From Phycisphaerales bacterium (GTDB lineage: Bacteria; Planctomycetota; Phycisphaerae; Phycisphaerales; UBA1924), in NCBI GenBank assembly GCA_040397805.1, contig JBBAVG010000011.1, positions 2,247 to 66,246 of the forward strand: a stretch of DNA of 64,000 nucleotides, in the 5' to 3' direction. The position numbers and the translations under genes were made by a program. Of the stretch, positions 27,160-50,783 are shown piece by piece. Each line of letters starts with the position of its first letter. The first letter of the stretch is position 1. Under the pieces are notes generated by a model, which was not told the DNA's origin, did not search any database, and saw only the letters and a list, made by a program, of their open reading frames with translations.

Positions 27160-27327
27160 TCAGCAGCCGCCCGCTTCCCAGTACAGGAAGAAGGTCGTGA
27201 CGTCCTCGCCGTCGATGCCGCCGTCGGCGTTGACGTCGGCGATCATCTCGCCTGCTTCCCACGCGGCAAAGAAGGTGGTCATGTCGTCGCCGTCGACGCC
27301 GCCGTCCTGGTTGAAGTCGGCGGGGCA
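27160..27327 (-). repeat. coding repeat: 55-aa Cys..Cys twin-loop dockerin-like module, copy 1
   Basis: Shares the DNA and protein pattern with the copies at 32072, 44129, 48249 and 50007 (tcagcagccgcccgc...gccgtcga.gccgccgtc). Confidence 0.8.
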
Positions 27328-28137
27328 TTGGCCCGCGGCTTCGCCGTTGAGGATGAAGGCGACATCCTGGGGCACCGCCACGGAGAGCATGGACTTGCCG
27401 GGGTCGACGACGGGCACCCACGCGTCGACGAGTCCGTCGGGCACGAGGGCCATGGCGTTGTCGTCGGCGTGCGAGCGCGACCCGGCTCGCGTCACGGGGA
27501 CGATCCAGGCCTGCATCGACGGATCGACGCACTGCACCTGCACGTCGAGCCAGTAGGTGGCGGGCATGTACGTGTACCCGCCCAGGTCGAGGTCGAGGGC
27601 CCAGATTCGCCGCGAGGCGTCCGGGGGCGTCACGAAGTTCGTCGGCGCCAGCGGGCGTGTGCTGAAGATCCGGATGGCGGTGGTCGGGGCGGCGGCGAGC
27701 AGCCGATTCCGCACGGCGTCGCCGTAGAAGACGTGTGTCTCGGCGGCGGCGGGGTTGGCGTCCCACAAGCGGAGCGTCGCGCCGGAGAAGGGCGAAGCGC
27801 CCGAGGGCACCGCGCCGTTGACGTACACGAAGATCGTGACGGAGGAGAGTCGCCAGCCGTGCTCGTGAGTGATGGTGAAGTCGTCGGCGACGCGGAAGGA
27901 GCCGCCGATGGCGCCGGGGTCGGGAGAGACGTTGAGCCCGGCGAGCAGGTTGACGTCGCCGGGCGAACTGGCGACCTCGGCGTAGACGCGTCCGGCGGGC
28001 GCGGGCGTGCCGGCGAAGGCGTGCGAGGCCACGGCGAACGCGGGCGTCGCGGGATCGTCGCTTTGGTTGCTCCAGATGGGCTGGGCGAGGGCGACCGGCG
28101 CGAGCGCCGCGAGGAGGATGGAGGCGACCGGGCTCAT
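27160..28137 (-). CDS. secreted protein of unknown function with C-terminal GC-type dockerin-like module
   Basis: Signal peptide MSPVASILLAALAPVALAQP. It ends CPADFNQDGGVDGDDMTTFFAAWEAGEMIADVNADGGIDGEDVTTFFLYWEAGGC. It has an ATGA overlap with the DUF1501 gene. Confidence 0.75.
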   Translation of the reverse strand: MSPVASILLAALAPVALAQPIWSNQSDDPATPAFAVASHAFAGTPAPAGRVYAEVASSPGDVNLLAGLNVSPDPGAIGGSFRVADDFTITHEHGWRLSSVTIFVYVNGAVPSGASPFSGATLRLWDANPAAAETHVFYGDAVRNRLLAAAPTTAIRIFSTRPLAPTNFVTPPDASRRIWALDLDLGGYTYMPATYWLDVQVQCVDPSMQAWIVPVTRAGSRSHADDNAMALVPDGLVDAWVPVVDPGKSMLSVAVPQDVAFILNGEAAGQCPADFNQDGGVDGDDMTTFFAAWEAGEMIADVNADGGIDGEDVTTFFLYWEAGGC

Positions 28138-29426
28138 GCCAACACCCCGCGGTGGACGGGCGCGTAGCCGGGGAAGATGGAGGCGATGTTCGGATTGCCC
28201 AGACGCTGCTCGATGATCTCGGCCAGCACGTCGCGGTAGTCGATGGTGACTTGCAGGTCGGCGTAGTCGTAGAGGTTCTCGGTGGCGAGGCCCTGCCAGT
28301 GGCGGAGCACGCGGCCGCCGCCGACGGCGGGGCCCATGAGCATCATGGCGTTGCCGTGGCCGTGGTCGGTGCCCAGGCTGCCGTTCTCGAAGACGCGGCG
28401 GCCGAACTCGGAGACCACGGCGACGATGTAGCCGGGGCTGGAGCCGGCGGACATGTCCTGGTGGAAGGCGGCGAGCGCGGAGGAGAGGCGGTTCATGAGC
28501 ACGGCCATCGTGCCGCTGACGGGCCCCTGCGCCGAGTGGGTGTCCCACCCTTGCACGTCGATGGCGACGGCTTCGACGCCGATCTGCGCCTTGATGAGGG
28601 CGGCGGAGGTCTTGAGGGCGTAGCCCAGCGACTCGGCGGCGTTGTACTGCGCGCCGTTGGCGGGCTGGTAGGTCGAGAAGCCGATCTGGTCGAGCAGGCC
28701 GACGGTGGCGAGGGTGGTCGAGGCGGTGGCGCGGAGCGGGTCGGCGACGGTGGCGTACATGTCGCGGAGCGCGTTGGTGCGGGCCGTCTTGGTGGCGGGG
28801 TTGCCCAGGAGCCCGAAGTTGGCAAGGTCGGGAATGGGGAGCGTGTGGGGGCCACCCTCGAGCACGCGTTGGAGGCCGGTGCTGATGCCCACGGCCCGCA
28901 ACATGGCGGCCGGGTCGGCGGGCGCGACGCTCGCGAGGTGGCGACCGAGCCAGCCGGTGAGGGAGGTGTCGCTGGAGACCTGCCCCACTTCCATGAACCG
29001 CTGGGCGTCGAAGTGCGAGCGGGACGGATCGGGCGAGCCGCAGGCGTGGACGAAGAGCAGGTCGCCCGCGAGGTAGGCGGGCAGAAGGGCCGACATCGCG
29101 GGGGAGAGCCCGAAGAAGCCGTCGAGGTCGATGCAGCGAGCGGCCGCGCCGCTGTCGGGGCGAGGAATGGCCAGCGACGGCCGCGCGAGGTAGTAGTCGT
29201 CGTCGCCCCAGGGAACGCACATCGAGAGCCCGTCGGCTGCGCCGCGGAGGTAGATCCACACGATGGTGTCGCGGAGCGTGGAGCGATAGTCGCGGGCCAC
29301 GGCCACGCGGGGCAGCCATGAGGTCAGGGCGGCCAGACCGGCGAGCGAGCCCGCGCCGGCCTGCAGGAACCCGCGCCGGGACAACTCGGCGTATTCGGGG
29401 CAGCATTTCGCGGGGATGGGTTCCAT
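28134..29426 (-). CDS. DUF1501 domain-containing protein (sulfatase/alkaline-phosphatase-like) with Tat signal
   Basis: LSRRGFLQAGAGSLAGLAAL twin-arginine signal and SEFGRRVFENGSLGTDHGHGNAMMLMG, the DUF1501 C-terminal signature. Confidence 0.85.
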   Translation of the reverse strand: MEPIPAKCCPEYAELSRRGFLQAGAGSLAGLAALTSWLPRVAVARDYRSTLRDTIVWIYLRGAADGLSMCVPWGDDDYYLARPSLAIPRPDSGAAARCIDLDGFFGLSPAMSALLPAYLAGDLLFVHACGSPDPSRSHFDAQRFMEVGQVSSDTSLTGWLGRHLASVAPADPAAMLRAVGISTGLQRVLEGGPHTLPIPDLANFGLLGNPATKTARTNALRDMYATVADPLRATASTTLATVGLLDQIGFSTYQPANGAQYNAAESLGYALKTSAALIKAQIGVEAVAIDVQGWDTHSAQGPVSGTMAVLMNRLSSALAAFHQDMSAGSSPGYIVAVVSEFGRRVFENGSLGTDHGHGNAMMLMGPAVGGGRVLRHWQGLATENLYDYADLQVTIDYRDVLAEIIEQRLGNPNIASIFPGYAPVHRGVLA

Positions 29427-29449
29427 GGGAAGGTCCGGGGCGGAAGCGT

Positions 29450-30910
29450 TCAATACCACTGGAAGGCGGGGGAGGCCGCCGCGAGGCCCAAGGCCTCGGC
29501 GCGGACCGAGGCGGACGACGGATCGATCGCGAGATAGTCTCGCACGCGGTTGCGTTCGAAGGGGGGCATCTCGTGGCCGAACATGGCGGCGTCGATCCGC
29601 GAGGCCATCTGCTCGGCGGTCGAGAGCCCCGCGAAGAACGCGGCGGGATCCGGCGTGATGCCGGAGATCGCGTTGTTCATCATCTGTGCGGCGAAGTTCC
29701 ACCGAGGCAGCGCGAGGCCCGACCAGAAGTCGACGCGGTCGGGATATCCGTCGGGGTTGGGCCAGTTGAAGTTGAGGTGGCCCGCGATGCGGAGTTGGGC
29801 TCGCATGCCGCCGGTGGAGACGATCTGGCTGCCCGTGGCGCGAATGGCCGACGCGTACAGGTGGAAAGGACGCTTGAACCGGGGCGTCGCCACCGCCATG
29901 TGCTGCGGCGCGAGGATGCAACGCATGACCTCGCGAATGTCGCCGTCGGTGGCCGTGAAGCGGGCCGCGGCCGCTCTGGTCACCGACTCGGGCACGCCCT
30001 CGCCAAGGAATCTCCGACAGAGCTTGCGGCTCACGAACCGGGCGGTGCTCGGATGGTCGGCGAGGATTCGCAACACCGTCAGGCCGTCGTTGACGCCGCC
30101 GCCCGCGGGGATGTCATGCCCGAGCACTCGCTTGGCGCTGTTGTCGTGCAGGGAGGCGTTGAACCGGAAGATGCCCGCGAGCGACCCGGCGGTGTCGGGG
30201 GTGAACTGCCAACCGGTGAAGCAGCGGGCCACCTCTCCCACGTCCGCCTCGGTGTACCCGCCGTCGACGCCGATGGTGTGGAGTTCCATCAGTTCTCGCG
30301 AGTAGTTGAGGTTGGGGTTGCCCGCGATCGACAGGTGATTGTCGAGGAAGTAGAGCATTGCGGGGCTCATGGCCGACGCCGCGAGCAGGTCGCCGAACTT
30401 CCCCAGGGCGTTGGACCTGACCACCTCACGGTCGTCGACGATCTTCAGCCACGCGCACGCGTCCTTGTTGACGTCGATGTTGAAGTGGTCGGTCCAGAAG
30501 TCGACCATCCGCTCGAAGAGCTGACGACGCGAATAGACCGCGCGGAGGATCGCCGCCTCGATGAGTTCGTTGACGACTTGCGCCGATGGCTGCCGGTAGA
30601 TCTCCCAGAAGTTCTTCGTCAGCGACGTGAGGGGCGCGATGCGAGCCAGGCATGACGCGTCGTCGACCGACTCGGGGTTGAGTTGCTGTTCGAGGTATCC
30701 GGCATAGCCCAGCGACGCGGCCGACGCGAGTTCGGGCGCGCTGATGCCGAAGGTGAGTCGCTTCACCAGCCGCACGAGCAGGGCGGATGGATCGACATCG
30801 CCCATGGCGCTGACCGGTCCTGCAACGGTGTCTGCCTTGGCGGCGACGGCGATCGTCGAAAGCACTCCGGCGAGCATGGCGCGTCGCGAGGCGCGAGGCG
30901 ACCGGGCCAT
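29450..30910 (-). CDS. DUF1800 domain-containing protein
   Basis: RRAMLAGVLSTIAVAA signal-like N-terminus, LERMVDFWTDHFN and MLYFLDNHLS, typical DUF1800 motifs. It sits directly upstream of DUF1501, the canonical pairing. Confidence 0.8.
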   Translation of the reverse strand: MARSPRASRRAMLAGVLSTIAVAAKADTVAGPVSAMGDVDPSALLVRLVKRLTFGISAPELASAASLGYAGYLEQQLNPESVDDASCLARIAPLTSLTKNFWEIYRQPSAQVVNELIEAAILRAVYSRRQLFERMVDFWTDHFNIDVNKDACAWLKIVDDREVVRSNALGKFGDLLAASAMSPAMLYFLDNHLSIAGNPNLNYSRELMELHTIGVDGGYTEADVGEVARCFTGWQFTPDTAGSLAGIFRFNASLHDNSAKRVLGHDIPAGGGVNDGLTVLRILADHPSTARFVSRKLCRRFLGEGVPESVTRAAAARFTATDGDIREVMRCILAPQHMAVATPRFKRPFHLYASAIRATGSQIVSTGGMRAQLRIAGHLNFNWPNPDGYPDRVDFWSGLALPRWNFAAQMMNNAISGITPDPAAFFAGLSTAEQMASRIDAAMFGHEMPPFERNRVRDYLAIDPSSASVRAEALGLAAASPAFQWY

Positions 30911-31192
30911 GGCATCACGAATCGGGTCGTCGCCCGGATGGATGGATGTGGCCTCGTCGCCGGCTTGCTGATCCACGCCGCCTGTCCTCTCTGCTCCCTG
31001 CACACGCGAACGAACCCGCCGACCCGGACGCCAATCGCGACACGCGATCCGGCCAAGGGCCGAACGCGATCGTCGCACGGCACGACCGAGCCGCTGCCTG
31101 AGCGTACAGGAACGCAGGGTAGGGTGCAAGGCAAATCAAGGCCTTGCGTTCATGAAATGGCGGATAACCCCGGGGAGAGGCCCGGGAGCCCG

Positions 31193-31930
31193 TCAGCGGC
31201 GTCGACGCCAGGCCGCCGCCAGCCCGAGGACCGCGAGCGTGGCCGGGGAGGGGATGGGCGTGTAGGTCACGACCAGCGAGGGTCGATTGGCGGCCGTGGG
31301 GTTGTTGCGAGAGTCGATCCGCTTGGCGCTGCCGCTGACCGTCTCGTTGCCGATGATGGCCCAGCCGAAGTTCGAGGATGGATCGTCAACCCACGACTGC
31401 ACGTCCCGGATCAGGCCCGCGCCGGAGAAGGTGTAGAAGCCGACTCCCACCAGCTGCTGGCCCGCCGACGGAGCGGCATCGAAGTCGCCGCCCAAGTTCG
31501 ACCATGGCACCGCCCCGAAGAAGGCGTGCGTCCAGGTGGCGTCGCCGGGTTCGGCGGGCGATCCGCCGCCGCCGCCGGACTGTCCGTTGGAGTTGCTCTG
31601 CCCCTCGCCCCAGTTGGCCAGCATGCGATGCAGGACGGTGCGCTCGGTGGCGGTGATGGTCCGCGAAACGCGGATCGTGAAACTGACGTTCGTGATCGTG
31701 GAGCCGGCCGGAATCGCCGAGAGGTCGAAGGCGATCAGCCCCCTTCGCAGACCGCCGATGGCGGTCATGCCGGAGTAGAGATACGAGCCCTGCCCGTTGC
31801 TGATGCCGCCGGACACGTTCTCGAACAGGGTGTTGTCCTTGGAAGCGCCGAGCGTGACGACTTCCGCGGCGGCGACCGAACAGCAGACGACGAGGGCGGA
31901 CGCGCAGGTCCGAAGACGAAGGGTGGGCAT
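31193..31930 (-). CDS. PEP-CTERM-sorted secreted protein with DNRLRE-like N-domain
   Basis: Signal peptide. ASKDNTLFEN...GLRRGLIAFDLSAIPAGSTITNVSF resembles the DNRLRE domain. The C-terminus is PIPSPATLAVLGLAAAWRRRR (a PEP-like motif, a TM helix and an Arg cluster). Confidence 0.7.
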   Translation of the reverse strand: MPTLRLRTCASALVVCCSVAAAEVVTLGASKDNTLFENVSGGISNGQGSYLYSGMTAIGGLRRGLIAFDLSAIPAGSTITNVSFTIRVSRTITATERTVLHRMLANWGEGQSNSNGQSGGGGGSPAEPGDATWTHAFFGAVPWSNLGGDFDAAPSAGQQLVGVGFYTFSGAGLIRDVQSWVDDPSSNFGWAIIGNETVSGSAKRIDSRNNPTAANRPSLVVTYTPIPSPATLAVLGLAAAWRRRR

Positions 31931-32071
31931 GACGACTCCCGGCCATGGAGTTCCCGCGCGCGGCCACGCGAAACACCTGTGAAGCCGTAGGGAATATGCC
32001 ACCTGAAACGGAAAAAACGAGGGGAATCGGGCAAATGGCTTCAGATAACCTGCCATCGCCCTTGCGGAGGC

Positions 32072-32239
32072 TCAGCAGCCGCCCGCCTGCCAGATGACGA
32101 AGAACGCCTCCACGTCGCCGCCGTCGACGCCGCCGTCGTGGTTGACGTCGGCGCCGACCTCGGCCGCTTCCCACGCGAGGAAGAACGCGCCCACGTCGAG
32201 GCCGTCCACCCCGCCGTCCTGGTTGAAGTCGGCGGGGCA
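32072..32239 (-). repeat. coding repeat: 55-aa Cys..Cys twin-loop dockerin-like module, copy 2
   Basis: Same module at the C-terminus of the S8 peptidase. Confidence 0.8.
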
Positions 32240-33658
32240 GGTCGACTGGAAGGCCGCGAAGGCGTCGACCATGCCGTAGCCGCGGACGAAGAGTGCGTCG
32301 GGCGCCGCGGCGTCGGAGGCCGTGGAGCAGAGCGCCGCCCGCATCTGGTCGACCGTCCACCACGGGTTGGCCTGCACCAGGCACGCGACGGCGGCGGCCA
32401 CCAGGGGCGTGGAGAGCGACGTGCCGCTCGCGCCGGCGTACGTGTCGACGGTGTCGGGGTGGACGGTGGCGGTGCCCACGCCCCGGGCGAGCAGTTCGGG
32501 CTTGAGGCGGCCGTCGGCGGTGGGTCCGTCGGAGGAGAAACCCGCGATGACGCCCGCCGAATCGGCCGCGCCGCAGGAGATGACCCGCAGGCCGTCGGCG
32601 GGGGCGATGATGCTCGCCGTGGCCGGATCGGCGTCGTGCCCGTCGTTGCCCGCGGCGGTGCAGCAGTGCAGGCCGTTCTCGGCGGCGATGTTGACGGCGA
32701 TGGTCGTCACGGCGGTCTGGCCGTCGAGGTCCTCGCGGGTGTACCAATCGATGTAGCCGAGCGAGGAGGTGGCGACGTCACCGCCGCGAGCCTCGATGAA
32801 CTCGATGCCGGCGGCGTAGAAGTCCTCCTCGATGGGCGTCTCGCTCGCGACATTCTCCGTCTTGCAGAGGATGACGGAGGCGTCGTACGCGCCGCCGACG
32901 AGTTGGTCGGGCAGGTACGACGAGATGCACCCCAGGATGAGCGTGCCGTGCGAGTGCTGGCCCGCGGGATCTCCCGCCTCGGGCCCCGTCTGGTCGTCGG
33001 CGTTGATGAAGTCGCGTTCGGCGATGACGTGCAGCGGACGCGCCGGGTTGTTGAACGACTGGTGGACGCGGTTGAAGCCGGTGTCGAGGATGCCGATGAC
33101 GACGCCGCGGCCGGTGTACCCGCGGACGTGCATGGCCTGAAGGTTGATCTGCGCGAGTTGTGCCGAACTACGGCCGTAGAAGTCCCGCGGCACGTGGTGC
33201 GACCGATCCTCGGGCACCGCGTCCTCGCAGACCTGGGCCTCCGCGCAGCGTCGGCCACGAGCGACGGGCCGCACCTCGCGGACGCCCGGGAGCGAGCGAA
33301 TCGCCTCGACCTGCTCGGGCGTGGCCTCCACGCTCAGGGCGTTGAGCCATCGCGATTCGGTACGGACGCGGGCCAGCGCGGCCACCGCGACCCGGGGGCG
33401 TTCGTCGAGCGGAAGGTCCCGAACGTCGAGCAACCCCGGCGTGGTGCGCCGCAGGCGACGGCGTTCCAGCATGCGGGCGTCCGCCGCGTCCTCGGCTCGA
33501 CGCAACGCGACGTCGAGTGCCGCGGGATCGGACTGGGCCGCACGAGGTTGCAGGAAGACCCAGGTGGGCGTCGCCGGTTGGGACGCGCCGGCCACGGCGA
33601 CGAGGGAGAACGACGTGAGCAGGCCGATCAGACGGGCACGAGTGACGACAACGGACAT
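32072..33658 (-). CDS. secreted S8 (subtilisin-family) serine peptidase with C-terminal GC-type dockerin-like module
   Basis: Catalytic triad contexts GILDTGF (Asp), HGTLILG (His) and GTSLSTPLVAAA (Ser). It has a signal peptide and a propeptide-like N-region. It ends CPADFNQDGGVDGLDVGAFFLAWEAAEVGADVNHDGGVDGGDVEAFFVIWQAGGC. Confidence 0.87.
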   Translation of the reverse strand: MSVVVTRARLIGLLTSFSLVAVAGASQPATPTWVFLQPRAAQSDPAALDVALRRAEDAADARMLERRRLRRTTPGLLDVRDLPLDERPRVAVAALARVRTESRWLNALSVEATPEQVEAIRSLPGVREVRPVARGRRCAEAQVCEDAVPEDRSHHVPRDFYGRSSAQLAQINLQAMHVRGYTGRGVVIGILDTGFNRVHQSFNNPARPLHVIAERDFINADDQTGPEAGDPAGQHSHGTLILGCISSYLPDQLVGGAYDASVILCKTENVASETPIEEDFYAAGIEFIEARGGDVATSSLGYIDWYTREDLDGQTAVTTIAVNIAAENGLHCCTAAGNDGHDADPATASIIAPADGLRVISCGAADSAGVIAGFSSDGPTADGRLKPELLARGVGTATVHPDTVDTYAGASGTSLSTPLVAAAVACLVQANPWWTVDQMRAALCSTASDAAAPDALFVRGYGMVDAFAAFQSTCPADFNQDGGVDGLDVGAFFLAWEAAEVGADVNHDGGVDGGDVEAFFVIWQAGGC

Positions 33659-34000
33659 CAGGCCTTCCTTTCTTGGCGTTGCCGCCGATTCCCCCGCCAC
33701 CGATCGAGGATACACCACCGTTCGCTCGTCCCCCCCGCTCCGTTCCACGCATTCCCCCGATGAAGGTTACCGGGCGTGCGAATCCTGCTATCATCGCGCT
33801 GAACGGTCGAGTCCGGCCGCCCGAGTTCATGCCTCGCGGCCGTTCGTGCGATACACACGGACGCGCGGCGGCGTCCGCGGCCTCCGCTTGACCGGGACGG
33901 CGGGCGCCCTTGACGGAAACGGCGGCTTCACCAGGTCCATGATCGACCGACCTGCTCCGCGGCCGCGGGGCTGGACAGCAGGAAACGGCGATCAGGACTC

Positions 34001-36947: not shown

Positions 36948-36970
36948 GGGATCGTCGGGAACGGGCTCGC

Positions 36971-39967
<2,997 letters not shown>

Positions 39968-40183
39968 GGCTGTGTCCGGGAGGCCAGGGGGAGGTTCGTA
40001 CCGGGCGACTCGCGTGCGGGTGAAATCGGGCCTCGCGGGGGTCGCGGGGCCCGGGCGGAAATGGTAGCGAGTCGCCTTCGAACCGGTCGGACGGCCGGGG
40101 CTTGGCCGAACAGGGGGAACGCGGGGCCGTCCCGGGCGTAGGAGGAGGGACTGCGGGCCCCACCTGCCCATCTTCACTACCAT

Positions 40184-42301: not shown

Positions 42302-42332
42302 ATCATCGCGGCGACACGCTCAACGGCTGCGC

Positions 42333-43316
42333 ATGACCAACGGCATGAACGGCATCAACAGCGTCAACACCCTCTCGCTCCCCGACCTGTACGCGAGGTT
42401 CGAGGCCACCGGCCTGATCCGGCGGCTGCTCGAGCTCGCTCACGACGAGGACATGGGCATCCCGCGCCCGTCGTCGGCGCCGGGCCGCGACACGGTGCGG
42501 AGCGACGGCGACATCACCTCGGAGTGCTGCATCGACGTGGCCCGCATCGGCGAGGCCAAGGTGGTGGCGAGGGCCCCGGGCATGATCGCCGGACTGGCGG
42601 CGTTGCCCGAACTCATGCGGCTCTTCGCCCCCAGCTCGAACGTCGAGGTGCATGCCACCGACGGCCAGGAGGCGGCCGCCATGACCACGCTGGCGACGCT
42701 GCGCGGGCCGCTCGACGAACTGCTGGGGCTGGAGCGAACGCTCCTGAACCTGCTGGGACGCCTTTCAGGCATCGCCACCCGCACGCGGGCCTTCGCGAAG
42801 GCGATGGAGCCCTCGTGCCGGGCCCGCCTCTACGACACCCGCAAGACGACGCCGGGCCTCCGCGTGCTCGAGAAGTACGCCGTCCGCTGCGGCGGGGGAT
42901 TCTGCCACCGCATCGGCCTCTTCGACGCCGTGCTCATCAAGGACAACCACGTCGCGGGGGTCGGCGTCAAGGAGTTGCCCCGGTTCATCCAGCGTGCCGC
43001 CACGCTGGCGAGGGTGAAGGGCCATCCGTCGTTCGTCGAGGTGGAGGTGGACACGCTCGAGCAGTACGAGGCGTTGCTCACGCTGCCGCCGGGCGTCGTC
43101 GACATCATCCTGCTCGACAACATGTCGTGCGAGCGGATGAGCCACGCGGCGAAGCGACGCGACGAGCTCAACCCCTCGCTCGAACTCGAGGCCTCGGGGG
43201 GCATCACGCTCGAGACCATCAACGCGATCTCCCGCACCGGCGTCGACCGCATCAGCGTGGGCGGGCTCACGCACTCTGCGACCGTGCTCGACGTGGCGAT
43301 GGACGTCGACGGATGA
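42333..43316 (+). CDS. nadC: nicotinate-nucleotide diphosphorylase (carboxylating)
   Basis: ERTLLNLLGRLSGIATRT..., YDTRKTTPGLRVLEKYAVRCGGG.CHR.GLFDAVLIKDNH, and LDNM...EASGGI. Confidence 0.9.
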   Translation: MTNGMNGINSVNTLSLPDLYARFEATGLIRRLLELAHDEDMGIPRPSSAPGRDTVRSDGDITSECCIDVARIGEAKVVARAPGMIAGLAALPELMRLFAPSSNVEVHATDGQEAAAMTTLATLRGPLDELLGLERTLLNLLGRLSGIATRTRAFAKAMEPSCRARLYDTRKTTPGLRVLEKYAVRCGGGFCHRIGLFDAVLIKDNHVAGVGVKELPRFIQRAATLARVKGHPSFVEVEVDTLEQYEALLTLPPGVVDIILLDNMSCERMSHAAKRRDELNPSLELEASGGITLETINAISRTGVDRISVGGLTHSATVLDVAMDVDG

Positions 43317-43326
43317 CCCGCGGGGC

Positions 43327-44115
43327 GTGCCGGCCATGAAGCGTCTTGACGGTCGACTCTCGATGTGGCCCGCGAGTTTCGGAGCCGCCCCATCGCTTCG
43401 TCTTCTGGCGCAGACCCCTTCCACGCAGGATGTGGCTCGCCGGTGGCGAGGGCCGACGCCCTTGGCCGTGCTCGCCGCGAGGCAAACCGCCGGACGCGGA
43501 CGCCTTGGGCGACGCTGGGTCGACGACCAGGGTCTGGGCGTGGCCCTCACGCTGGTCCTTTCCGACCGCGACGTCGACACGACGTGTCTATCGCTGGCCT
43601 GCGGCATCGCCGCCCTCGACGCCATCGCCGCCGTCCTCGGGGCACGGACCCCGCCGCTGGGTCTGCGGTGGCCCAACGACCTGATGCTCGTCGACGCGGC
43701 GGGATGCGGCGTCCGCAAGCTGGGTGGCGTGCTGATCGAGCGTTCCGAGGGCCGCGTGCTGGCCGGCATCGGCATCAACGTGCACCAACAGCCGACGGAC
43801 TTCCCGCCGCACCTTCGCGACCTCGCCACGTCGCTGGCGTGCCTGCACATCGCATGTTCGCGTCCGCGGCTGGCGGGCGAAGTGGCCCGGGCGGCGATCG
43901 CGTGGGTGAAGCGGCCCTGTGAGCAGGTCGTGGAGCGGTGGAAGCGTCACGACGCGTTGCGTGGCGTGGCGACGGCCTTCGAGTCCGGGGGGAGGCGCGT
44001 GGAGGGCGTGGTGGAGCGGATCGAGCCGCTGGAGTTCATCGAACTTCGCACGGCTCACGGGCTCGAGCGGCTGTCGGCCGCGACCGCGGTTCGCGGCGAA
44101 GCGTCGAGGAGCTGA
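43327..44115 (+). CDS. birA: biotin--[acetyl-CoA-carboxylase] ligase (no HTH domain)
   Basis: ARQTAGRGRLGRRW (GRGRxGRxW motif), LRWPNDLML and KLGGVLIE. Confidence 0.82.
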   Translation: MPAMKRLDGRLSMWPASFGAAPSLRLLAQTPSTQDVARRWRGPTPLAVLAARQTAGRGRLGRRWVDDQGLGVALTLVLSDRDVDTTCLSLACGIAALDAIAAVLGARTPPLGLRWPNDLMLVDAAGCGVRKLGGVLIERSEGRVLAGIGINVHQQPTDFPPHLRDLATSLACLHIACSRPRLAGEVARAAIAWVKRPCEQVVERWKRHDALRGVATAFESGGRRVEGVVERIEPLEFIELRTAHGLERLSAATAVRGEASRS

Positions 44116-44128
44116 GCTCACGCGTCGA

Positions 44129-44296
44129 TCAGCAGCCGCCCGCTTCCCAGAGCGTGAAGAACTCCTGCACGTCGCCGCCGTCGATGCCGCCGTCTTCGTT
44201 CACGTCCGCGGCGCCGTCGCCCGCTTCCCACGCGACGAAGAAGGCTTCGATGTCGCCACCGTCGATGCCGCCGTCGCCGTTGAAGTCCGCGGCACA
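44129..44296 (-). repeat. coding repeat: 55-aa Cys..Cys twin-loop dockerin-like module, copy 3
   Basis: Same module at the C-terminus of propeller paralog 1. Confidence 0.8.
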
Positions 44297-45652
44297 GAAC
44301 GCCACCGTGCGATACGCCCTCACGAGGGTGTCGGTGCTGGTCATCACGAGCGTGCCGTCGGTGCCGAGCACGGGACCGCCCTGGTTGAGGTTGCCGTCGA
44401 TGGGCGCCTCCCACCGGAGGGTGAGATCGGGGTTGAAGGAGTAGAGGCGTCCGCCGTTGAAGCCGCCCGCGGTGCCGTTGGAGAGGTAGATGACGCCGCG
44501 GGCGTCGACGGCCATGTGGACCTGCATGTAGTCGCCGGTGATGGGCGTGGGGTAGGTGGCGATGACCGAGCCGGTGGCGGGATCGAGACGTTGCAGCGTG
44601 CCGGAGGCCTCGAAGTCCTGGGTGCCGGTCCAAGACATGCTGTAGATGGAGCCGTCGGGGCCGACGCCCCAGCGGGAGAACTCGCCGCCGCCGCCGGAGG
44701 AGGTCCGCCAGTTCTGGGTGATGGCGGTGCCCGTGTCGGTGAAGGAGTAGAGGAAGTCGTTGTTCACGTTGAAGTTCTGCGAATACGGCAGATACAGACG
44801 ACCATCGGTGCCGACGTAGAGGCCGTTGTGCAGGAGCACGCCTCCGAGCAGGGGTCCGCGGTAAAGGAAGGCGCCGGTCGTGGCGTCGAACTTGCGGATG
44901 GCCACGCGATTGCCGGACCCGTTGATGAGGTCGACGGTGTAGACGGCGTTGCCGTTGATGACGACGCCGGTGGTGTTGCCCACCTGCTCGACGCGAGCGG
45001 TCCGCCAGACGAGCAGGCCGGTCTGGGCGTCGATGCGTTCGATCCATCGCCACGAGGGCAAGATGAGGTCGCCGTCATCGGCGAAGACCGCGCCGGTGTA
45101 GGGGCCGGCGAGGATCTGGTAGCGGGGCACGTCCGTGCCGCCCGCCGTGTGCCACAGCACCGCGCCGGTCGCCGCGTCGAGGCAATAGAGCGGGGCGTCG
45201 ACGCTCCCGCCGTTGCCCGAGCGACTGGCGAAGAGTCGGCCGTTCTTGACGCCGGCGATCCACGTGGTCCAGTCGCCCGCCTCGAAGGGCAGATCGGCGG
45301 TCCAGAGGACCGCGCCGGTGTCGAGGTCCATCGCGTAGATCGTGGCGTCGTCGGGCGGCGGGTTGTTCTGCGGGAATGCGGTCTGTCGCACCATGAAGAC
45401 GCGGCGGCCCTCGATGACGGGGTTCCACGCGATGTAGCTGAAGGGGCCGCCCTCCCAGAGCAGATCGGAGGCACCGATGCCGTCAGGTCCGTTGACGTTG
45501 ACCAGTCCGTTCATGCGGCCGTTGCCGCCGAGGTTGGACCAGTCTTGCGTCTGCGCCTGAGCCTGGCCCGCCGAGAAGCCCGCCGAGAAGCCGGCCACGG
45601 CGACACACAAGGCACACCACCGCCACGCCATGCTTCGCAAATGGAACATCAT
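44129..45652 (-). CDS. secreted PQQ-like beta-propeller repeat protein with C-terminal GC-type dockerin-like module (paralog 1)
   Basis: Signal peptide MMFHLRSMAWRWCALCVAVAG. Repeated ...YAMDLDTGAVLW / YCLDAATGAVLW / IDAQTGLLVW blades. It ends CAADFNGDGGIDGGDIEAFFVAWEAGDGAADVNEDGGIDGGDVQEFFTLWEAGGC. Confidence 0.8.
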   Translation of the reverse strand: MMFHLRSMAWRWCALCVAVAGFSAGFSAGQAQAQTQDWSNLGGNGRMNGLVNVNGPDGIGASDLLWEGGPFSYIAWNPVIEGRRVFMVRQTAFPQNNPPPDDATIYAMDLDTGAVLWTADLPFEAGDWTTWIAGVKNGRLFASRSGNGGSVDAPLYCLDAATGAVLWHTAGGTDVPRYQILAGPYTGAVFADDGDLILPSWRWIERIDAQTGLLVWRTARVEQVGNTTGVVINGNAVYTVDLINGSGNRVAIRKFDATTGAFLYRGPLLGGVLLHNGLYVGTDGRLYLPYSQNFNVNNDFLYSFTDTGTAITQNWRTSSGGGGEFSRWGVGPDGSIYSMSWTGTQDFEASGTLQRLDPATGSVIATYPTPITGDYMQVHMAVDARGVIYLSNGTAGGFNGGRLYSFNPDLTLRWEAPIDGNLNQGGPVLGTDGTLVMTSTDTLVRAYRTVAFCAADFNGDGGIDGGDIEAFFVAWEAGDGAADVNEDGGIDGGDVQEFFTLWEAGGC

Positions 45653-45766
45653 GAACGAACTCCTGAATCGACCTCGCCGCAGCGACGTCGGACGCCGCGA
45701 TTCCGTCCCCGTTTCGCCAAAAGACACGGCCCGGCGGTCAGGCCGGGCCGTGCGATGAAGGTTGGA

Positions 45767-46699
45767 TCAGCGGCGCCGGCGACAGGTCGCCGCGGCGGCC
45801 AGTCCGAGCAACGCGAGCGAGCCGGGCGAAGGAATGGTGTATCCCTGCCAGCCGTTCCGCGCGTTGTCGTACACGAACAGTTGGTCGTTGGCGACGCTCA
45901 CGCCGCCGTAGAACTGCGGCACGTCGATGTCGAGATCCCACGAGTCCACGTACGAACCGTCGACGCGGAACCGCATCGCCTTGTTGATCGGCGCGTAGGC
46001 GGTGGCCACGAGGTAATCGTTCACGGCGTCGTACCCGAGGCCGAACCACGTCGTGGGCGGGCTTCCGGCCGCGGCCGTGTCGAGCGTGACGTTGCCGATC
46101 AGCGACCCGTCGACGCGGCTGACGACGTTGAGGACGTTGGTGTTGCTGAAGGAGTAGAGACGGTTCCTCGCGGAGTCGTACACCGGCATGGTCTGGGTGC
46201 CGCGGAGGCCGGGAAGCGACGGGAGCACCATCGTCGTCGAACCGGTCACCTGGCCCGCCGCATCCAACGGCACGGCGAAGAGGCCCTGCGGACGCCCGCC
46301 AACGGCCCCGATCCCGCCGTCACGCGCCCGCAACGTGAGCACCTCGAGCTGACCGGTGTTCGGGTTGTAGTTCACCGATCGAAGGTCGTGCTCGACCTCG
46401 AAGAAGGCCTGCACCTCGGAACCGGCCTCCGAGAAGACGTACAACTTCGAATAGAAGGAATCGCCATCACCGGACCCGGAACCGGCGGCGTAGTACTGCC
46501 GGAAGCCCGGATGCCACGTCACGTTCATTCCCGCCGAAGGCGTGATCGAGGTCTGAAGGAAGGTGGTCCGCTGGGCCACCCCGGCCTCTGCCTGATGGGA
46601 GACACCAAGCACCCCCGCCGCCATCACCGTGGCGACGACCAACGTTCCAAGTTCAGAAACAGCAGTCTTCACGTGGGCTCTCCTCATGCAGGTCCTCAA
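45767..46699 (-). CDS. PEP-CTERM-sorted secreted beta-rich protein
   Basis: Signal peptide (LGTLVVATVMAAGVLGVSHQAEA), a beta-propeller-like body, and the C-terminus TIPSPGSLALLGLAAAATCRRRR. Confidence 0.68.
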   Translation of the reverse strand: MRTCMRRAHVKTAVSELGTLVVATVMAAGVLGVSHQAEAGVAQRTTFLQTSITPSAGMNVTWHPGFRQYYAAGSGSGDGDSFYSKLYVFSEAGSEVQAFFEVEHDLRSVNYNPNTGQLEVLTLRARDGGIGAVGGRPQGLFAVPLDAAGQVTGSTTMVLPSLPGLRGTQTMPVYDSARNRLYSFSNTNVLNVVSRVDGSLIGNVTLDTAAAGSPPTTWFGLGYDAVNDYLVATAYAPINKAMRFRVDGSYVDSWDLDIDVPQFYGGVSVANDQLFVYDNARNGWQGYTIPSPGSLALLGLAAAATCRRRR

Positions 46700-46736
46700 G
46701 CCGCCGCGGTATCCGCCGCTCGCCGCTCGAGGCCGC

Positions 46737-46815
46737 TTTTATTACAACCTACCGACATCCATCACCAGTTGCAAGTACTTTTAGAAGTGATTCCAAAAGT
46801 TTTGCCTATTCAGCG
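46737..46815. promoter_or_regulatory. AT-rich divergent intergenic island with 6-bp inverted repeat ACTTTT-N12-AAAAGT
   Basis: ttttattacaacctaccgacatccatcaccagttgcaagtacttttagaagtgattccaaaagttttgcctatt stands out against the G/C-dominated flanks. It lies between divergent genes starting at 46699 (-) and 46885 (+). Confidence 0.4.
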
Positions 46816-46884
46816 ATGATGCGACGATACTCGCGGGGCGAGATTGGCGTCCCCGTGTATCATGCGATCAATCCAAGATGACGA

Positions 46885-48153
46885 ATGATCGACGACACAC
46901 CTGACAAACACCGCTCGTCTGCAGGGGGCACCCTGCATACCCGCTTCGAGCTCGACGCCACCGCCGTCGGTCGTCAACTGCACGGCGCCATGTCGGCACT
47001 GCTTGCGGAGGCCTGCGGCGGAGTCCCGATTCGGACCGGAACGGAGTTGAGCGCGGCCCTGGGGATCGACGTCAACCTCGCGTGGAAGGTGCTGAAGATC
47101 TGCCGCCCCGCGGCGGGCGCTTCGACGTTGCTTCGCCTTCCCGGCGATGGAGCCCTTCGCATTCTTCTGGCGGCGGCCGAGGGCAAGGGCGTGTCGACGT
47201 CGGCGGTCGACCGAGTTCGCCTCGCCTTCGAGGCCTACGACCGACTCGTGCTCACGCACGCCGGAAGCCGCTTGTCGCTCGATTCGCTGCTTGCGAATCT
47301 CGCGGGCGACGAGCAACCCATCGACCTGGCGACGCGACGCGCGGCCTTTCGCGCCAACGCGGCGGTGCTGGGCGTGCAGGCCTCCGTGCAGACGGCCGCC
47401 TACTTCTTCTGGCCGGAAACGATCGACGGCGTCGCCTCCTCGGGCATGGCGATCGTCCGCGGCATGAGCCAGTTCCGTCGCTTGCGGCCGGACGTGTCGT
47501 GGGTGATCGGTCGCGGACGACGGACCGACCATCAAGCCCGCCTCTACGGACACCCATTCCCCATGCCGCTCGACACGGAGACGGCGGAGCGTCACGGGGG
47601 CGTTCCGCTGGTTCAGTTCCTGTCGTCATGGGAGTTGCCGCCGGTTCGGAGGACGATCTCCCCCGACGGCATGGCGATCGACCGCATCGTCGGCGGGCCG
47701 GTGGGGCTGCAGGGTTCGCAGTCGTTCTTTCTCGCCGAGACGATGCGTCCGGGACTCGGGCGGCGGAACGACCCTTCGAACCCGACGCTCCGCCTGGTGG
47801 TCTCGTCGCATACGCCGTGCGAAACGCTGGTCTTCGACGCGCTGTTCCACAAGGACCTGCCGCCGCTGGGACCGCCCCGCGTGATCACGGCGAGCGAACT
47901 TGGCGGCGACTCGCTGGGCTACACGGCGGTGGAGGATCGCGTGACGCTGAATCTCGGCGCCGAGGTCGAGGATCACGGCCCGGGACTCGACACGCTGCAC
48001 ATCGCCGAACTGCCTCGCTATCCCGAACTGCTCGGATCGGTGTGCGAGCGACTCGCCGTGAACCCGGCGGACCTGCACGCGTGGCGGGTGCGGATCGCCT
48101 TTCCGCCCATCCCATGCGGCGTGCTGATCGAGCGAGACATGAACCCGGCGTGA
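46885..48153 (+). CDS. hypothetical cytoplasmic protein, possible N-terminal helix-turn-helix
   Basis: A 422-aa ORF with coding-like G/C-rich third positions and no signal peptide or TM. TGTELSAALGIDVNLAWKVLK has an HTH-like pattern. I recognise no family. Confidence 0.6.
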   Translation: MIDDTPDKHRSSAGGTLHTRFELDATAVGRQLHGAMSALLAEACGGVPIRTGTELSAALGIDVNLAWKVLKICRPAAGASTLLRLPGDGALRILLAAAEGKGVSTSAVDRVRLAFEAYDRLVLTHAGSRLSLDSLLANLAGDEQPIDLATRRAAFRANAAVLGVQASVQTAAYFFWPETIDGVASSGMAIVRGMSQFRRLRPDVSWVIGRGRRTDHQARLYGHPFPMPLDTETAERHGGVPLVQFLSSWELPPVRRTISPDGMAIDRIVGGPVGLQGSQSFFLAETMRPGLGRRNDPSNPTLRLVVSSHTPCETLVFDALFHKDLPPLGPPRVITASELGGDSLGYTAVEDRVTLNLGAEVEDHGPGLDTLHIAELPRYPELLGSVCERLAVNPADLHAWRVRIAFPPIPCGVLIERDMNPA

Positions 48154-48191
48154 CCACCGCCGTCACTCGCGGCGACAAGGCCCTCCCGTTC

Positions 48192-48228
48192 GCGACTGCG
48201 CCGTCGACACCGTCGCCGGCGCAGTCGC
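48192..48228. terminator. 11-bp perfect inverted repeat between convergent genes
   Basis: gcgactgcgcc ...15 nt... ggcgcagtcgc, between the stop at 48153 (+) and the stop at 48249 (-). There is no U-tract. Confidence 0.35.
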
Positions 48229-48248
48229 GACAGTCGAGCGTTCGCCCC

Positions 48249-48416
48249 TCAGCAGCTGCCGGCTTCCCAGAGGATGAAGAAGGCCTGCACGTCACCTCCG
48301 TCGACGCCGCCATCCTGATTGACGTCCGCGGCGGGATCGCCGGTCTGCCAGACGAGGAAGAAGGCCTCGACGTCCGCGCCGTCGATGCCGCCGTCGCCGT
48401 TGAAGTCGGCGGGACA
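48249..48416 (-). repeat. coding repeat: 55-aa Cys..Cys twin-loop dockerin-like module, copy 4
   Basis: Same module at the C-terminus of propeller paralog 2. Confidence 0.8.
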
Positions 48417-49754
48417 GGAGCCCGTGGTGCGGTACGCGCGGACGAGGGTGTCGGTGCTGGCGATCACGAGCGTGCCGTCGGTGCCGAGCACCGGGGCGCC
48501 CTGGTTGAGGTTGCCGTCGATGGGGGTTTCCCAGCGGAGGGTGAGATCGGGGTTGAAGGAGTAGAGGCGTCCGCCGTTGAAGCCGCCGGCGGTGCCGTTG
48601 GAGAGGTAGATGACGCCGCGGGCGTCGACGGCCATGTGGACCTGCATGTAGTCGCCGGTGATGGGCGTGGGACAGGTGGCGATGACCGAGCCGGTGGCGG
48701 GATCGATCCGCTGCAGCGTGCCGGAGGCCTCGAAGTCCTCGGTGCCGGTGAAGGACATGCTGTAGATGGAGCCGTCAGGGCCGACGCCCCAGCGGGAGAA
48801 CTCGCCGCCGCCGCCGGAGGAAGTGCGCCAGTTCTGGGTGATGGCCGAGCCCGTGTCGGTGAAGGAGTAGAGGAAGTCGTTGGCGACGTTGAAGTTCTGG
48901 GTGAAGGGAAGGTAGAGGCGGCCGTCGGTGCCGATGTAGAGCCCGTTGTGGAGAAAGCCGCCGGAGAGCGGCTCGGACTGGTACATGGGCGTGCCGGTGG
49001 TGGCGTTGATCTTGCGGACGACGATGCGAAGTCCGGACGCGCTGTCGGCGGTGTAGACGGCGTCGCCTTCGATCACCGCGCCGGTGGTGTTGCCCACCTG
49101 CTCGACGCGCGCGGTGCGCCAGAGGAGTTGGCCGGTCACGGCGTCGATGCGTTCGATCCAACGCCACGAGGGCACGATGATGTCGCCATCGTCGGCGAAG
49201 ACCGCGCCCGTGTAGGGGCCGGCGAGGATCTGATAGCGGGGCACGCTCGTGCCTCCAGCCGTGTGCCAGAGCACCGCGCCCGTCGCCGCATCGAGGCAGT
49301 AGAGGGGCGCGTCGACGCTGCCCCCGTCGCCGGATCGGCTGGCGAAGAGTCGGCCATTCTTGACGCCGGCGATCCACGTCGTCCAGTCGCCGTTCTCGAA
49401 GGGCAGGTCGGCGGTCCAGAGCACCGCGCCGGTGTCGAGGTCCATCGCGTAGATCGTCGCGTCGTCGGGCGGCGGATCGTTCTGTGGGAAGGCGGTCTGG
49501 CGCACCATGAAGACGCGGCGGCCCTCGATGACGGGGTTCCACGCGATGTAGCTGAAGGGGCCGCCCTCCCAGAGCAGGTCGGAGGCGCCGACGCCGTCGG
49601 GTCCGTTGACGTTCACCAGTCCGTTCATGCGGCCGTTGCCGCCGAGGTTGGACCAGTCCTGCGTCTGTCCACCGGCGTGTCCGACCGCGATCGCGACCGA
49701 GGCGAGGAACCAGACGACCGACGCGGAACGCCGCACCTGCAGACTCGACTTCAT
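48249..49754 (-). CDS. secreted PQQ-like beta-propeller repeat protein with C-terminal GC-type dockerin-like module (paralog 2)
   Basis: Signal peptide MKSSLQVRRSASVVWFLASVAIAVG. The mature region is collinear with 44129..45553. It ends CPADFNGDGGIDGADVEAFFLVWQTGDPAADVNQDGGVDGGDVQAFFILWEAGSC. Confidence 0.8.
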   Translation of the reverse strand: MKSSLQVRRSASVVWFLASVAIAVGHAGGQTQDWSNLGGNGRMNGLVNVNGPDGVGASDLLWEGGPFSYIAWNPVIEGRRVFMVRQTAFPQNDPPPDDATIYAMDLDTGAVLWTADLPFENGDWTTWIAGVKNGRLFASRSGDGGSVDAPLYCLDAATGAVLWHTAGGTSVPRYQILAGPYTGAVFADDGDIIVPSWRWIERIDAVTGQLLWRTARVEQVGNTTGAVIEGDAVYTADSASGLRIVVRKINATTGTPMYQSEPLSGGFLHNGLYIGTDGRLYLPFTQNFNVANDFLYSFTDTGSAITQNWRTSSGGGGEFSRWGVGPDGSIYSMSFTGTEDFEASGTLQRIDPATGSVIATCPTPITGDYMQVHMAVDARGVIYLSNGTAGGFNGGRLYSFNPDLTLRWETPIDGNLNQGAPVLGTDGTLVIASTDTLVRAYRTTGSCPADFNGDGGIDGADVEAFFLVWQTGDPAADVNQDGGVDGGDVQAFFILWEAGSC

Positions 49755-50006
49755 GACTGGACTCCGTTGGTTGAGCGATCCACGTTCGACGGACCCGTCG
49801 CCTCGTCGCACACGTCGCCCAACACCTTGTAGCGTCCCCGGTCCGACGACGGTTGCAGCCGACCGCTCATTCGAGTCCGCGACGTCGTGATCGTCGCCCT
49901 CGCGGATTCGCGATCGACCATCTGATGCGTCATTTATCAGACAACCGCCCAGGCGATCTCCGCGTCGCCGTCCGTTGCCGGCGTGGAGTGCCGCACCGAC
50001 GGGGCC

Positions 50007-50174
50007 TCAACAACCACCGGCCTCCCAGAGCGCGAAGAAGGCTTCGGCATCCGCACCGTCGACCCCGCCGTCGGCGTTGACGTCGGCGTCGGCGTCGCCC
50101 GCCTCCCACGCGGCGAAGAAGGCCCCGACGTCACTGCCGTCGACACCGCCGTCCTCGTTGAAGTCGGCCTTGCA
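50007..50174 (-). repeat. coding repeat: 55-aa Cys..Cys twin-loop dockerin-like module, copy 5
   Basis: Same module at the C-terminus of the 258-aa protein. Confidence 0.8.
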
Positions 50175-50783
50175 GGCGGGCACGACCTCGATGCGGAAGT
50201 TGTCGAAGTCGGTGATGGACGCGAACGCGCCGCCGGGCGTTGCGCTGCTGGTGAAGAAGCCGAAGCGGATGGGCTGGCCTTGGGCGGAGAACTCGGGGAT
50301 TCCAGGTTGGCCGTCGACGCGGGAGAACTCATCCCCGCGGACGGAGAGCACCTCGAGGCGGACCCATGAACCCGAGTTGCCCATGTACCGCATGCCAGTG
50401 CGGTAGACGACCTGTCCCTGCTTGATGGCAAGCGTCACGCCTTCGCCGATGCCCAGACCGTCGATGTGGCGCACGTCCAGCCACATCGAGACCGAGCCGA
50501 TGGCGCCTTGCGTGCCGGGCTCGTAGCGGGTGGCGGCGGTGTTGCCGAAGCGGTGGAAGCCGTTGACGGTGGACCCGGCCCGTGCGTTGACCGCGCTGGT
50601 CACCCTCCGGGCGTTGCCTGGGTTTCCGGTGGGCGACGTGACGGCCGACACGCTGCCGCCATCACCCGACACGGACGGCTCGATCACCCACGTTCCGGAG
50701 GCGAACTCGCCGTCCTGATACACCACCTGTCCGCACGCGACCGAACACGTCGCCGCGATCGATGCCAGCATCACGCTCCTCAT
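50007..50783 (-). CDS. small secreted protein of unknown function with C-terminal GC-type dockerin-like module
   Basis: Short signal peptide MRSVMLASIAATCSVACGQ and a beta-rich body of about 180 aa. It ends CKADFNEDGGVDGSDVGAFFAAWEAGDADADVNADGGVDGADAEAFFALWEAGGC. Confidence 0.7.
   Translation of the reverse strand: MRSVMLASIAATCSVACGQVVYQDGEFASGTWVIEPSVSGDGGSVSAVTSPTGNPGNARRVTSAVNARAGSTVNGFHRFGNTAATRYEPGTQGAIGSVSMWLDVRHIDGLGIGEGVTLAIKQGQVVYRTGMRYMGNSGSWVRLEVLSVRGDEFSRVDGQPGIPEFSAQGQPIRFGFFTSSATPGGAFASITDFDNFRIEVVPACKADFNEDGGVDGSDVGAFFAAWEAGDADADVNADGGVDGADAEAFFALWEAGGC

Follow-up and report, generated by a model that had tools for sequence, protein, structure and literature searches.

A compact, cysteine-bounded dockerin-like module of a catalogued family at the C-terminus of five secreted proteins in a Phycisphaerales bacterium

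Type I dockerins (PF00404), such as those of C. thermocellum Xyn10B and CelS (PDB 1OHZ, 2CCL, 1DAQ), are built from two loop-helix segments (F-hands) with Asp or Asn at loop positions 1, 3, 5, 9 and 12, and they are placed at the C-terminus of secreted proteins as a tag conserved across many proteins of one organism. Internal symmetry between the two halves is typical of these domains. According to Slutzki et al. 2013 (PMC3821032), every intact dockerin structure contains an intramolecular clasp, in which one of the three residues preceding loop 1 is joined to a C-terminal residue and by which the Ca2+-bound form that binds cohesin is stabilised. Within the Phycisphaerae, Limihaloglobus sulfuriphilus was reported to encode scaffoldins with two cohesins (PMC11557425), and in the 'planctosome' of the Nemodlikiaceae cohesin and dockerin modules were proposed to assemble peptidases, not cellulases (Andrei et al. 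2019, PMC6461901). PEP-CTERM/exosortase signals are a C-terminal tag of another kind, in which a short motif precedes a transmembrane helix and an Arg cluster and the processing is done by a membrane enzyme. Here we describe a module of 55 amino acids (aa), bounded by two Cys residues, at the C-terminus of five secreted proteins encoded in a 64,000-nt stretch of the genome of an uncultured Phycisphaerales bacterium (GCA_040397805.1, contig JBBAVG010000011.1, positions 2,247 to 66,246; hereafter the window). Judged from its sequence and a structure model, the module is a compact dockerin variant with both Ca2+ loop motifs intact and a predicted dockerin-like fold. The reading we favour, at a probability of roughly 0.55, is that it would act as a Ca2+-loaded, disulfide-clasped dockerin-like tag through which Sec-exported proteins dock to a common envelope receptor.

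A six-frame motif scan of the window (70% G+C) returned ten DxNxDGxxDxxD loops, two in each of five genes and all on the minus strand, and 13 residues past each second loop come a Cys, the last letter of the stretch W-[EQ]-A-G-[GS]-C, and the stop codon. A profile hidden Markov model (HMM) of the tails, searched against the six-frame translation, gave exactly five matches (E 5e-33 to 6e-30), and chance can be excluded for them because the next match had only E = 3.6. The stop codons of the five genes begin at 27160, 32072, 44129, 48249 and 50007, the start codon of the last gene is at 50783, and all five gene models, which were chosen by eye, match residue for residue proteins called independently on a 68,895-nt NCBI contig. 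All five proteins have a hydrophobic signal-like N-terminus, end in GGC or GSC directly before the stop, and have exactly two Cys in the tail region. Motif scan, translation and HMM therefore agree with the original prediction of five secreted proteins sharing a Cys-to-Cys twin-loop tail of 55 aa, and the tail sequences quoted in it were exact.

The five genes, all on the minus strand, are as follows. Gene A (27160-28137) encodes a 325-aa secreted protein with a signal peptide, a passenger of about 250 aa and the module (27160-27327, 55 aa plus stop: CPADFNQDGGVDGDDMTTFFAAWEAGEMIADVNADGGIDGEDVTTFFLYWEAGGC); a Pfam scan of the protein, including this passenger, gave no match. Gene B (32072-33658; module 32072-32239, 55 aa plus stop) encodes a 528-aa S8 subtilase with a signal peptide (Peptidase_S8, 1.2e-39). 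Genes C (44129-45652; module 44129-44296, 55 aa plus stop) and D (48249-49754; module 48249-48416, 55 aa plus stop) encode PQQ_2/BamB-like beta-propellers of 507 aa, with a signal peptide, and 501 aa (PQQ_2, 5e-12 and 2e-13, respectively), and the tail of D was the sequence used for structure modelling. Gene E (50007-50783; module 50007-50174, 55 aa plus stop), directly upstream of D, encodes a 258-aa secreted protein with a signal peptide and a passenger of about 185 aa, for which the Pfam scan of the whole protein again found no match. C and D are paralogs with 83% identity over 502 aa; A, B and E have only the tail in common with the others, in line with the earlier description of the carriers as unrelated or paralogous.

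The tails belong to a catalogued family. All five pass the curated cut-off of 29 bits of the NCBIfam model NF041540 (dockerin_GC), with 36.0, 31.9, 31.6, 38.3 and 35.8 bits for A to E, and the five proteins therefore belong to 'GC-type dockerin domain-anchored protein', the family name already given in the original prediction. The exact sequences of A and E are on record, and members of their clusters at >=90% identity carry this name (MFZ4431422.1 for A and MFZ4429502.1 for E). B, C and D are likewise exact NCBI gene models; B is named an S8 peptidase in its GenBank cluster and D a PQQ-like propeller, and near-identical (>=90%) GenBank proteins bearing the family name stem from Phycisphaerales metagenome-assembled genomes (MAGs). 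The scores lie just above the cut-off and the matches span 53 of 67 profile positions. Since relatives with longer, degenerate loops score far higher (87.8 bits for P0381 and 59.5 bits for P0370), the window form appears to be a compact, peripheral subtype of NF041540 with canonical Ca2+ loops. A full-text literature search for the family name returned no paper, which agrees with the earlier statement that no experimentally defined receptor or function was known. The module is thus already known as an NCBIfam entry and the finding reveals no new kind of system; what is added here is incremental and consists of the position of the Cys clasp, the compact geometry, a passenger census, anchor swapping and recurrent regulatory neighbours.

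Outside the window, an exhaustive search of the tail profile over 1.84 billion representative proteins gave 5,908 matches at E <= 1e-3 and 1,420 at E <= 1e-10, and more than 388 copies were confirmed in GTDB species genomes, the best 80 of which stem from nine assemblies, all MAGs classed as Phycisphaerales, Phycisphaerae or Planctomycetota. One of the related loci (L001) is syntenic with the window, and the ortholog of subtilase B there, 81% identical, retains the tail. Carrier architecture was drawn from fetched genomic loci and from the exhaustive representative-protein search; a word-indexed search gave only fragments shorter than 100 aa. Of the 200 distinct modules in 1.22 Mb of Phycisphaerales loci, 191 end no more than five residues from the stop codon, and in 136 of the 145 best representative proteins the module lies within three residues of the C-terminus. 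Strict C-terminal placement thus holds for the window (5/5), and exceptions to it exist in the family.

Most families of carriers have a single, terminal module; chief among the proteins that depart from this pattern are four conserved hub-like ones (L021:17323-19020, plus strand; P0122, P0123 and P0126), in which a signal peptide, a beta-rich N-terminal domain of about 170 aa and one GC-type module are followed by four to six further Cys-rich dockerin-like repeats ending in GPxCxPCP. P0122 reaches 140 bits on NF041540 in seven stretches. These proteins could act as adaptors. Another repeat protein, P0121 (2,148 aa, from a low-G+C organism), has 16-17 tandem classical dockerin-like repeats in mid-protein and no C-terminal Cys, and it is unrelated to the GC-type architecture.

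The tails of unrelated carriers are 62-76% identical as protein and 71-81% identical as DNA, with many differences at synonymous sites. Because the protein is conserved while synonymous sites differ, the likeness of the tails is kept by purifying selection, as would be expected if a single partner receives all of them. A recent duplication or gene conversion was rejected as the cause of the similarity in view of the same DNA identities and synonymous differences, and also because the tails of the paralogs C and D (76% identical) are no closer to one another than the rest of the two proteins (83%).

The internal architecture of the module resembles that of a dockerin. The five Ca-ligand positions of both loops (1, 3, 5, 9 and 12; D4, N6, D8, D12 and D15 in the first loop and D31, N33, D35, D39 and D42 in the second) are invariant or nearly so, being kept in 150-151 of 151 canonical modules. 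Among the 233 modules parsed from the loci and the representative proteins together, the inter-loop spacing is 15 residues in 232, which makes the repeat period 27 aa. Within each window tail, one half is 62-75% identical to the other, so the two-fold sequence symmetry of type I dockerins is also present. When the tail profile was compared with PDB sequences, dockerins were the best matches (4fl4, E 3.7e-4; also 8ajy, 6kg9 and 1daq), and they align to the module with a six-residue insertion. An AlphaFold2 model of the D tail (a 60-aa construct, 125 aligned sequences) has a predicted local distance difference test score (pLDDT) of 91.8, and DSSP assigns to it a loop-helix arrangement that occurs twice, with helices at residues 18-28 and 45-57 and no helix ahead of loop 1. 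The top seven PDB matches of this model in Foldseek are all dockerins (2y3n_B, 2vn5_D, 2ccl_B, 2mte, 3kcp, 2ozn_B and 3ul4_B), with TM-scores of 0.51-0.58, root-mean-square deviations of 2.4-4.0 A and E-values of at least 0.5. A canonical EF-hand pair of the calmodulin or S100 type was considered and rejected, since the entering helix before loop 1 is missing, EF-hand proteins match the model with TM-scores of only 0.2-0.3, and Pfam EF-hand_7 gives 14.9 bits against a gathering score of 30. The dockerin-likeness noted earlier from the loops is thus borne out by intact EF-/F-hand Ca2+ loops and by the nearest solved sequences and folds, which are those of dockerins.

The two bounding Cys are conserved well beyond the window: both are kept in 229 of the 233 modules, as the first reading of the five tails had implied. 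In 225/233 the first Cys stands three residues ahead of the Asp of loop 1; the chain ends with the last Cys in 167/233, and one more residue follows it in 63/233. That the last residue is Cys was correct for all five window proteins; for the family it describes the majority only, as about a quarter of the modules have one residue after the Cys, which is optional and arbitrary (GCG, GCN, GCF, GCD and others). The pair occupies exactly the two places joined by the intramolecular clasp of dockerins. In type I dockerins this clasp is formed by aromatic, proline or ionic contacts; the published clasps are non-covalent (stacking, hydrophobic or electrostatic), and cysteine or disulfide is nowhere mentioned in that description (PMC3821032). 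The two occurrences of 'disulfide' that a term search showed in a 2025 cellulosome review concern engineered systems only. Because both Cys occupy clasp positions, a disulfide between them would be a covalent version of the clasp, and by this analogy a Cys1-Cys55 disulfide is the bond we infer for the GC-type module. The window also encodes (11031-13064, plus strand) a thiol:disulfide interchange protein of the DsbD type, with the domains DsbD_N, DsbD_TM and a thioredoxin-like one, which means that the periplasm has disulfide-handling machinery relevant to the proposed clasp.

The same residues could be read in another way, with the terminal Cys linking carriers covalently to each other or to a Cys-bearing envelope protein. 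A Cys at or beside a free C-terminus would suit such intermolecular disulfides, as would the extra Cys (CxxC, CPxC) that many members have immediately upstream of the module and the Cys-rich multi-module proteins L021:17323-19020, P0122, P0123 and P0126 as possible hubs. We consider this very unlikely, since the two Cys co-occur so regularly (229/233), lie at positions that are brought together in dockerin structures (PMC3821032), and number exactly two per window tail, which favours an internal pair.

The tagged proteins are exported ones. A signal-peptide-like start was found in 101 of 107 complete carrier open reading frames (ORFs) and in 233 of 393 control ORFs (Fisher p = 9e-14), the test being a heuristic with a high background (59% of the controls); on inspection a visible signal peptide was present in at least four of the six carriers that failed it. 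These facts support the expectation that carriers have signal peptides. The metagenomic representatives gave 80 signal-peptide starts among 126 proteins, and this set was dropped, many of its members being 5'-truncated or wrongly started. Passengers were classified by Pfam scans of 108 carriers, with the 25 most frequent families listed per scan, and they are very diverse: 62 Pfam families were matched in a scan of 84 carriers alone. Ig_3/I-set arrays are present in 19 of the 108 carriers, the peptidase passengers include S8, M10, M36 and M12B, with Reprolysin and P_proprotein also seen, and other passengers are FG-GAP, the lamin-tail domain (LTD, four carriers), CotH, PKD, galactose-binding-like domains, Laminin_G_3, beta-helix and several propellers. 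Glycoside hydrolases are almost absent among the families listed for these carriers. In contrast to type I dockerins, which are carried by cellulases, the module is thus found on peptidases and on adhesin-like and binding proteins, and its host is a diderm planctomycete.

As regards function, the result that tells most is that the same passengers occur with other C-terminal anchors. Homologs of passenger A in other lineages (28-43% identity) have one of two kinds of C-terminus: dockerin-like twin repeats bounded by Cys, in many variants, or PEP-CTERM/IPTL-like tails (VPEPAS...RRRKK, IPTLGP...RRRRA) that include a transmembrane helix and an Arg cluster. The DNRLRE domain is found with a PEP-CTERM-like tail in the window and in L001 and with a GC-dockerin tail in L022 and L029, and DUF4394/DUF6923 passengers were found with both tail types. 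The DNRLRE-domain protein of the window (31193-32071, minus strand) is encoded directly downstream of subtilase B and ends in PIPSPATLAVLGLAAAWRRRR; a second PEP-CTERM-like secreted protein (45767-46699, minus strand), encoded directly upstream of propeller C, ends in IPSPGSLALLGLAAAATCRRRR and scores 16.8 bits on the MYXO-CTERM model TIGR03382. A second C-terminal sorting system is thus present next to the GC-dockerin genes, and 15 more PEP-CTERM-like tails ([IV]PAPG...RRRR) were seen in the related loci. Because the same passenger domains bear PEP-CTERM-type tails, the sequences support the view that the module is an interchangeable C-terminal anchoring or sorting tag, and this view is independent of any cohesin. 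The module resembles PEP-CTERM/exosortase signals in being a C-terminal tag on signal-peptide proteins with very diverse passengers, some families of which are common to both; it differs from them as a soluble folded domain with Ca2+ loops. No hydrophobic stretch or Arg cluster was found in the five window tails, which sets them apart from PEP-CTERM and MYXO-CTERM signals.

Tail swapping with sorting signals would also be expected if the module were itself an export or sorting signal, that is, a C-terminal domain which is read by an outer-membrane translocation or processing machine, like the C-terminal domain of the type IX secretion system, and is then removed or attached covalently through its Cys. 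The C-terminal position of 191/200 modules in the loci and 136/145 in the representatives, the very high conservation across unrelated passengers, and the fact that carriers are Sec substrates of a diderm, which would need a further step to reach the surface, all fit such a signal. However, no transmembrane helix or basic cluster is present to hold the C-terminus at a membrane-bound sortase-like enzyme, the fold and intact Ca2+ loops are those of a binding module, and a motif at the very end that is precisely cleaved or recognised is hard to reconcile with the optional, arbitrary residue that may follow the terminal Cys. Nor does candidate machinery recur beside carriers, where the genes met repeatedly encode an ECF sigma factor, a Ser/Thr kinase and a cytoplasmic protein without an assigned function. 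An export signal of this type is therefore regarded as unlikely.

The docking reading can be spelled out as a sequence of steps. Each carrier would be exported through its N-terminal Sec signal peptide, after which the last 55 residues would bind two Ca2+ and thereby take up a compact dockerin-like fold of two loop-helix (F-hand) motifs. Under the oxidising conditions of the periplasm or the exterior, the Cys before loop 1 and the C-terminal Cys would form a disulfide that locks both ends. The folded tag would then be a common address label, by which diverse secreted proteins dock non-covalently to a shared cell-envelope receptor; the docked cargo would comprise peptidases, Ig-repeat adhesin-like proteins, propellers and lectin-like domains, and the tag would be interchangeable with PEP-CTERM-type anchors. 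Ca2+ binding, the disulfide, receptor docking and the cellular location, whether surface or periplasm, are what we infer in this scheme.

Several observations weigh against docking of this dockerin type. As regards the module, Pfam Dockerin_1 (PF00404) recognised only the tail of C, and that with 14.7 bits (E 0.037), below the gathering score of 22.9; there was no match at E <= 0.1 for the tails of A, B, D and E, and a match at E <= 0.001 was obtained in 4/84 related carriers. In the comparison with the two profile models that had been envisaged, the NCBIfam model thus recognised the tails and Dockerin_1 did not at its threshold, and by Pfam the module is not an ordinary type I dockerin. The linker of type I dockerins has about 8-18 residues and usually a short helix, whereas only about five residues lie between the 22-residue segments of the GC-type module, with a helical turn of three residues and no middle helix between the repeats. 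The E-values of the Foldseek matches are non-significant, which is attributed to the tiny query domain (60 aa). The module abuts the passenger domain directly with almost no flexible linker, a departure from classical dockerins, and in about 40% of the modules one to three extra Cys are found just upstream of the clasp Cys (CACLACPA, CTPCPA, CPPCPA; within the 15 residues before loop 1), so that the pattern of disulfides may go beyond one clasp; such Cys are absent from all five window tails. As regards the cell, surface display in a diderm would need an extra outer-membrane route, and carriers might stay periplasmic. As regards the receptor, Pfam Cohesin was not found in about 30 window ORFs scanned, was not among the families listed for the 108 carriers, where a single match could be hidden because only the 25 most frequent families are listed per scan, and was absent from 16 PEP-CTERM-like neighbours. 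An HMM of three C. thermocellum CipA cohesins, which is too narrow for distant cohesins, found nothing in 1.28 Mb (best E = 6.7), and no whole genome was covered by these searches. The earlier remark that no cohesin-like partner is visible in the window agrees with the scans of its ORFs.

A cohesin partner is plausible all the same for the docking reading, because the Limihaloglobus sulfuriphilus and planctosome reports place cohesins in the Phycisphaerae. If there were no receptor protein, the module might link its carriers to polysaccharide, peptidoglycan or capsule in a Ca2+-dependent way, or do no more than protect the C-terminus of extracellular proteins as a cap stabilised by Ca2+ and the disulfide. 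Dockerin-like modules without cohesins are reportedly widespread, and in addition to the lack of a cohesin in window ORFs, carriers, PEP-CTERM neighbours and the narrow HMM search, the classical cohesin-contact positions 10 and 11 of each repeat are occupied by Gly and a small residue (G13 and A/S/G14; G40 and A/S/G41), which offer no obviously specific surface for protein recognition. Yet for mere stabilisation there is no need to keep exposed positions so uniform over hundreds of paralogs and several genomes, nor would one expect a stabiliser to alternate with membrane-anchor signals on shared passenger domains, and dockerins are not known to bind carbohydrate; a ligand other than protein, or none at all, is accordingly thought improbable. 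A bolder form of the docking reading, which we put forward only tentatively and hold to be rather doubtful, is that the GC-type tag serves a cohesin-independent, disulfide-locked and Ca2+-dependent envelope docking system specific to the Phycisphaerae, with perhaps hundreds of carriers per genome and a receptor of a new kind, which might be a non-cohesin protein, a glycan or the Cys-rich multi-dockerin hubs. Such docking, if true, would correspond in planctomycetes to cellulosome or S-layer display, with peptidases and adhesin-like proteins as its main cargo.

The planctosome belongs to the same class, and its M12B reprolysin-like, P-domain and LTD protein types recur among GC-dockerin carriers. 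It is a purely bioinformatic proposal based on Pfam-detectable cohesins and dockerins in a few proteins of a different family (PMC6461901), in contrast to the GC-type variant, which is carried by a large share of secreted proteins and for which no cohesin was found in the sequences scanned. What makes the module interesting is the question of its receptor and the extent to which the secretome is tagged: a large part of the secreted proteins of the Phycisphaerales bears the tag (about one carrier per 10 kb of the flanks examined), its receiver would organise the way in which peptidases, binding proteins and adhesin-like fibres are exposed to the surroundings by these abundant aquatic planctomycetes, and the identity of the receptor would test the so far bioinformatic planctosome idea. 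Protein engineering might also make use of it as a docking module that is very small (55 aa) and covalently clasped.

The local density of carriers had been taken to suggest a surface-display or assembly system with its scaffold encoded elsewhere; it does not mark a dedicated display locus. An asparagine synthase, GcvP, an M28 peptidase, NadC and a biotin/lipoate ligase-family (BirA-like) gene lie between the five carriers, with QueC just beyond gene E, and a dedicated gene cluster was rejected on account of these housekeeping genes. In the related loci, after 76 seed modules were set aside, about one further module was found per 10 kb of flank, which is of the same order as five per 64 kb in the window. 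Because housekeeping genes intervene and the flank density is comparable, the local density is considered to reflect genome-wide abundance. Carriers make up 142 of the 943 ORFs of the fetched loci, a share that is biased upward as these loci are centred on carriers.

Some genes recur beside carriers. In the window, a gene at 46885-48153 (plus strand), here called u422, encodes a member of a family of about 420 aa without a signal peptide; it gave no Pfam or NCBIfam match, only 19 unnamed homolog clusters. Copies were found in the window and at L036:1-822, L036:13907-15130, L052:3-875, L052:11014-12288, L057:6155-7543, L061:5150-6406 and L076:7480-8775, and all eight lie 61-171 bp from a GC-dockerin carrier gene, the passengers of these carriers being unrelated. 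The AlphaFold2 model of u422 (pLDDT 71.9) has a helical N-terminal and a beta-rich C-terminal domain, with no fold match in the PDB (TM-scores of at most 0.2). The family may be a dedicated regulator; as a candidate receptor it was ruled out, since it has no signal peptide.

Pairs of an extracytoplasmic function (ECF) sigma factor (PF07638) and a Ser/Thr protein kinase adjoin carriers in six loci (L007, L043, L047, L055, L058 and L060), often in divergent orientation; an example is L060:6964-7665 and L060:4206-6956, and in total nine sigma factor and 14 kinase ORFs were found in 1.2 Mb. Such pairs point to signal-responsive control that is dedicated to single carriers. What looked like a 19-member 'family' beside carriers was discarded as an artefact of antisense ORFs across the GC-rich module.

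Two further gene pairs in the window were recorded. A two-partner secretion (TPS) pair consists of a 2,213-aa TPS-domain/filamentous-haemagglutinin-like exoprotein (54100-60741, minus strand) and a ShlB/FhaC-type transporter (60742-63078, minus strand). Between carriers A and B lies a DUF1501/DUF1800 gene pair (28137-29447 and 29450-31135, both minus strand), which is typical of planctomycetes.

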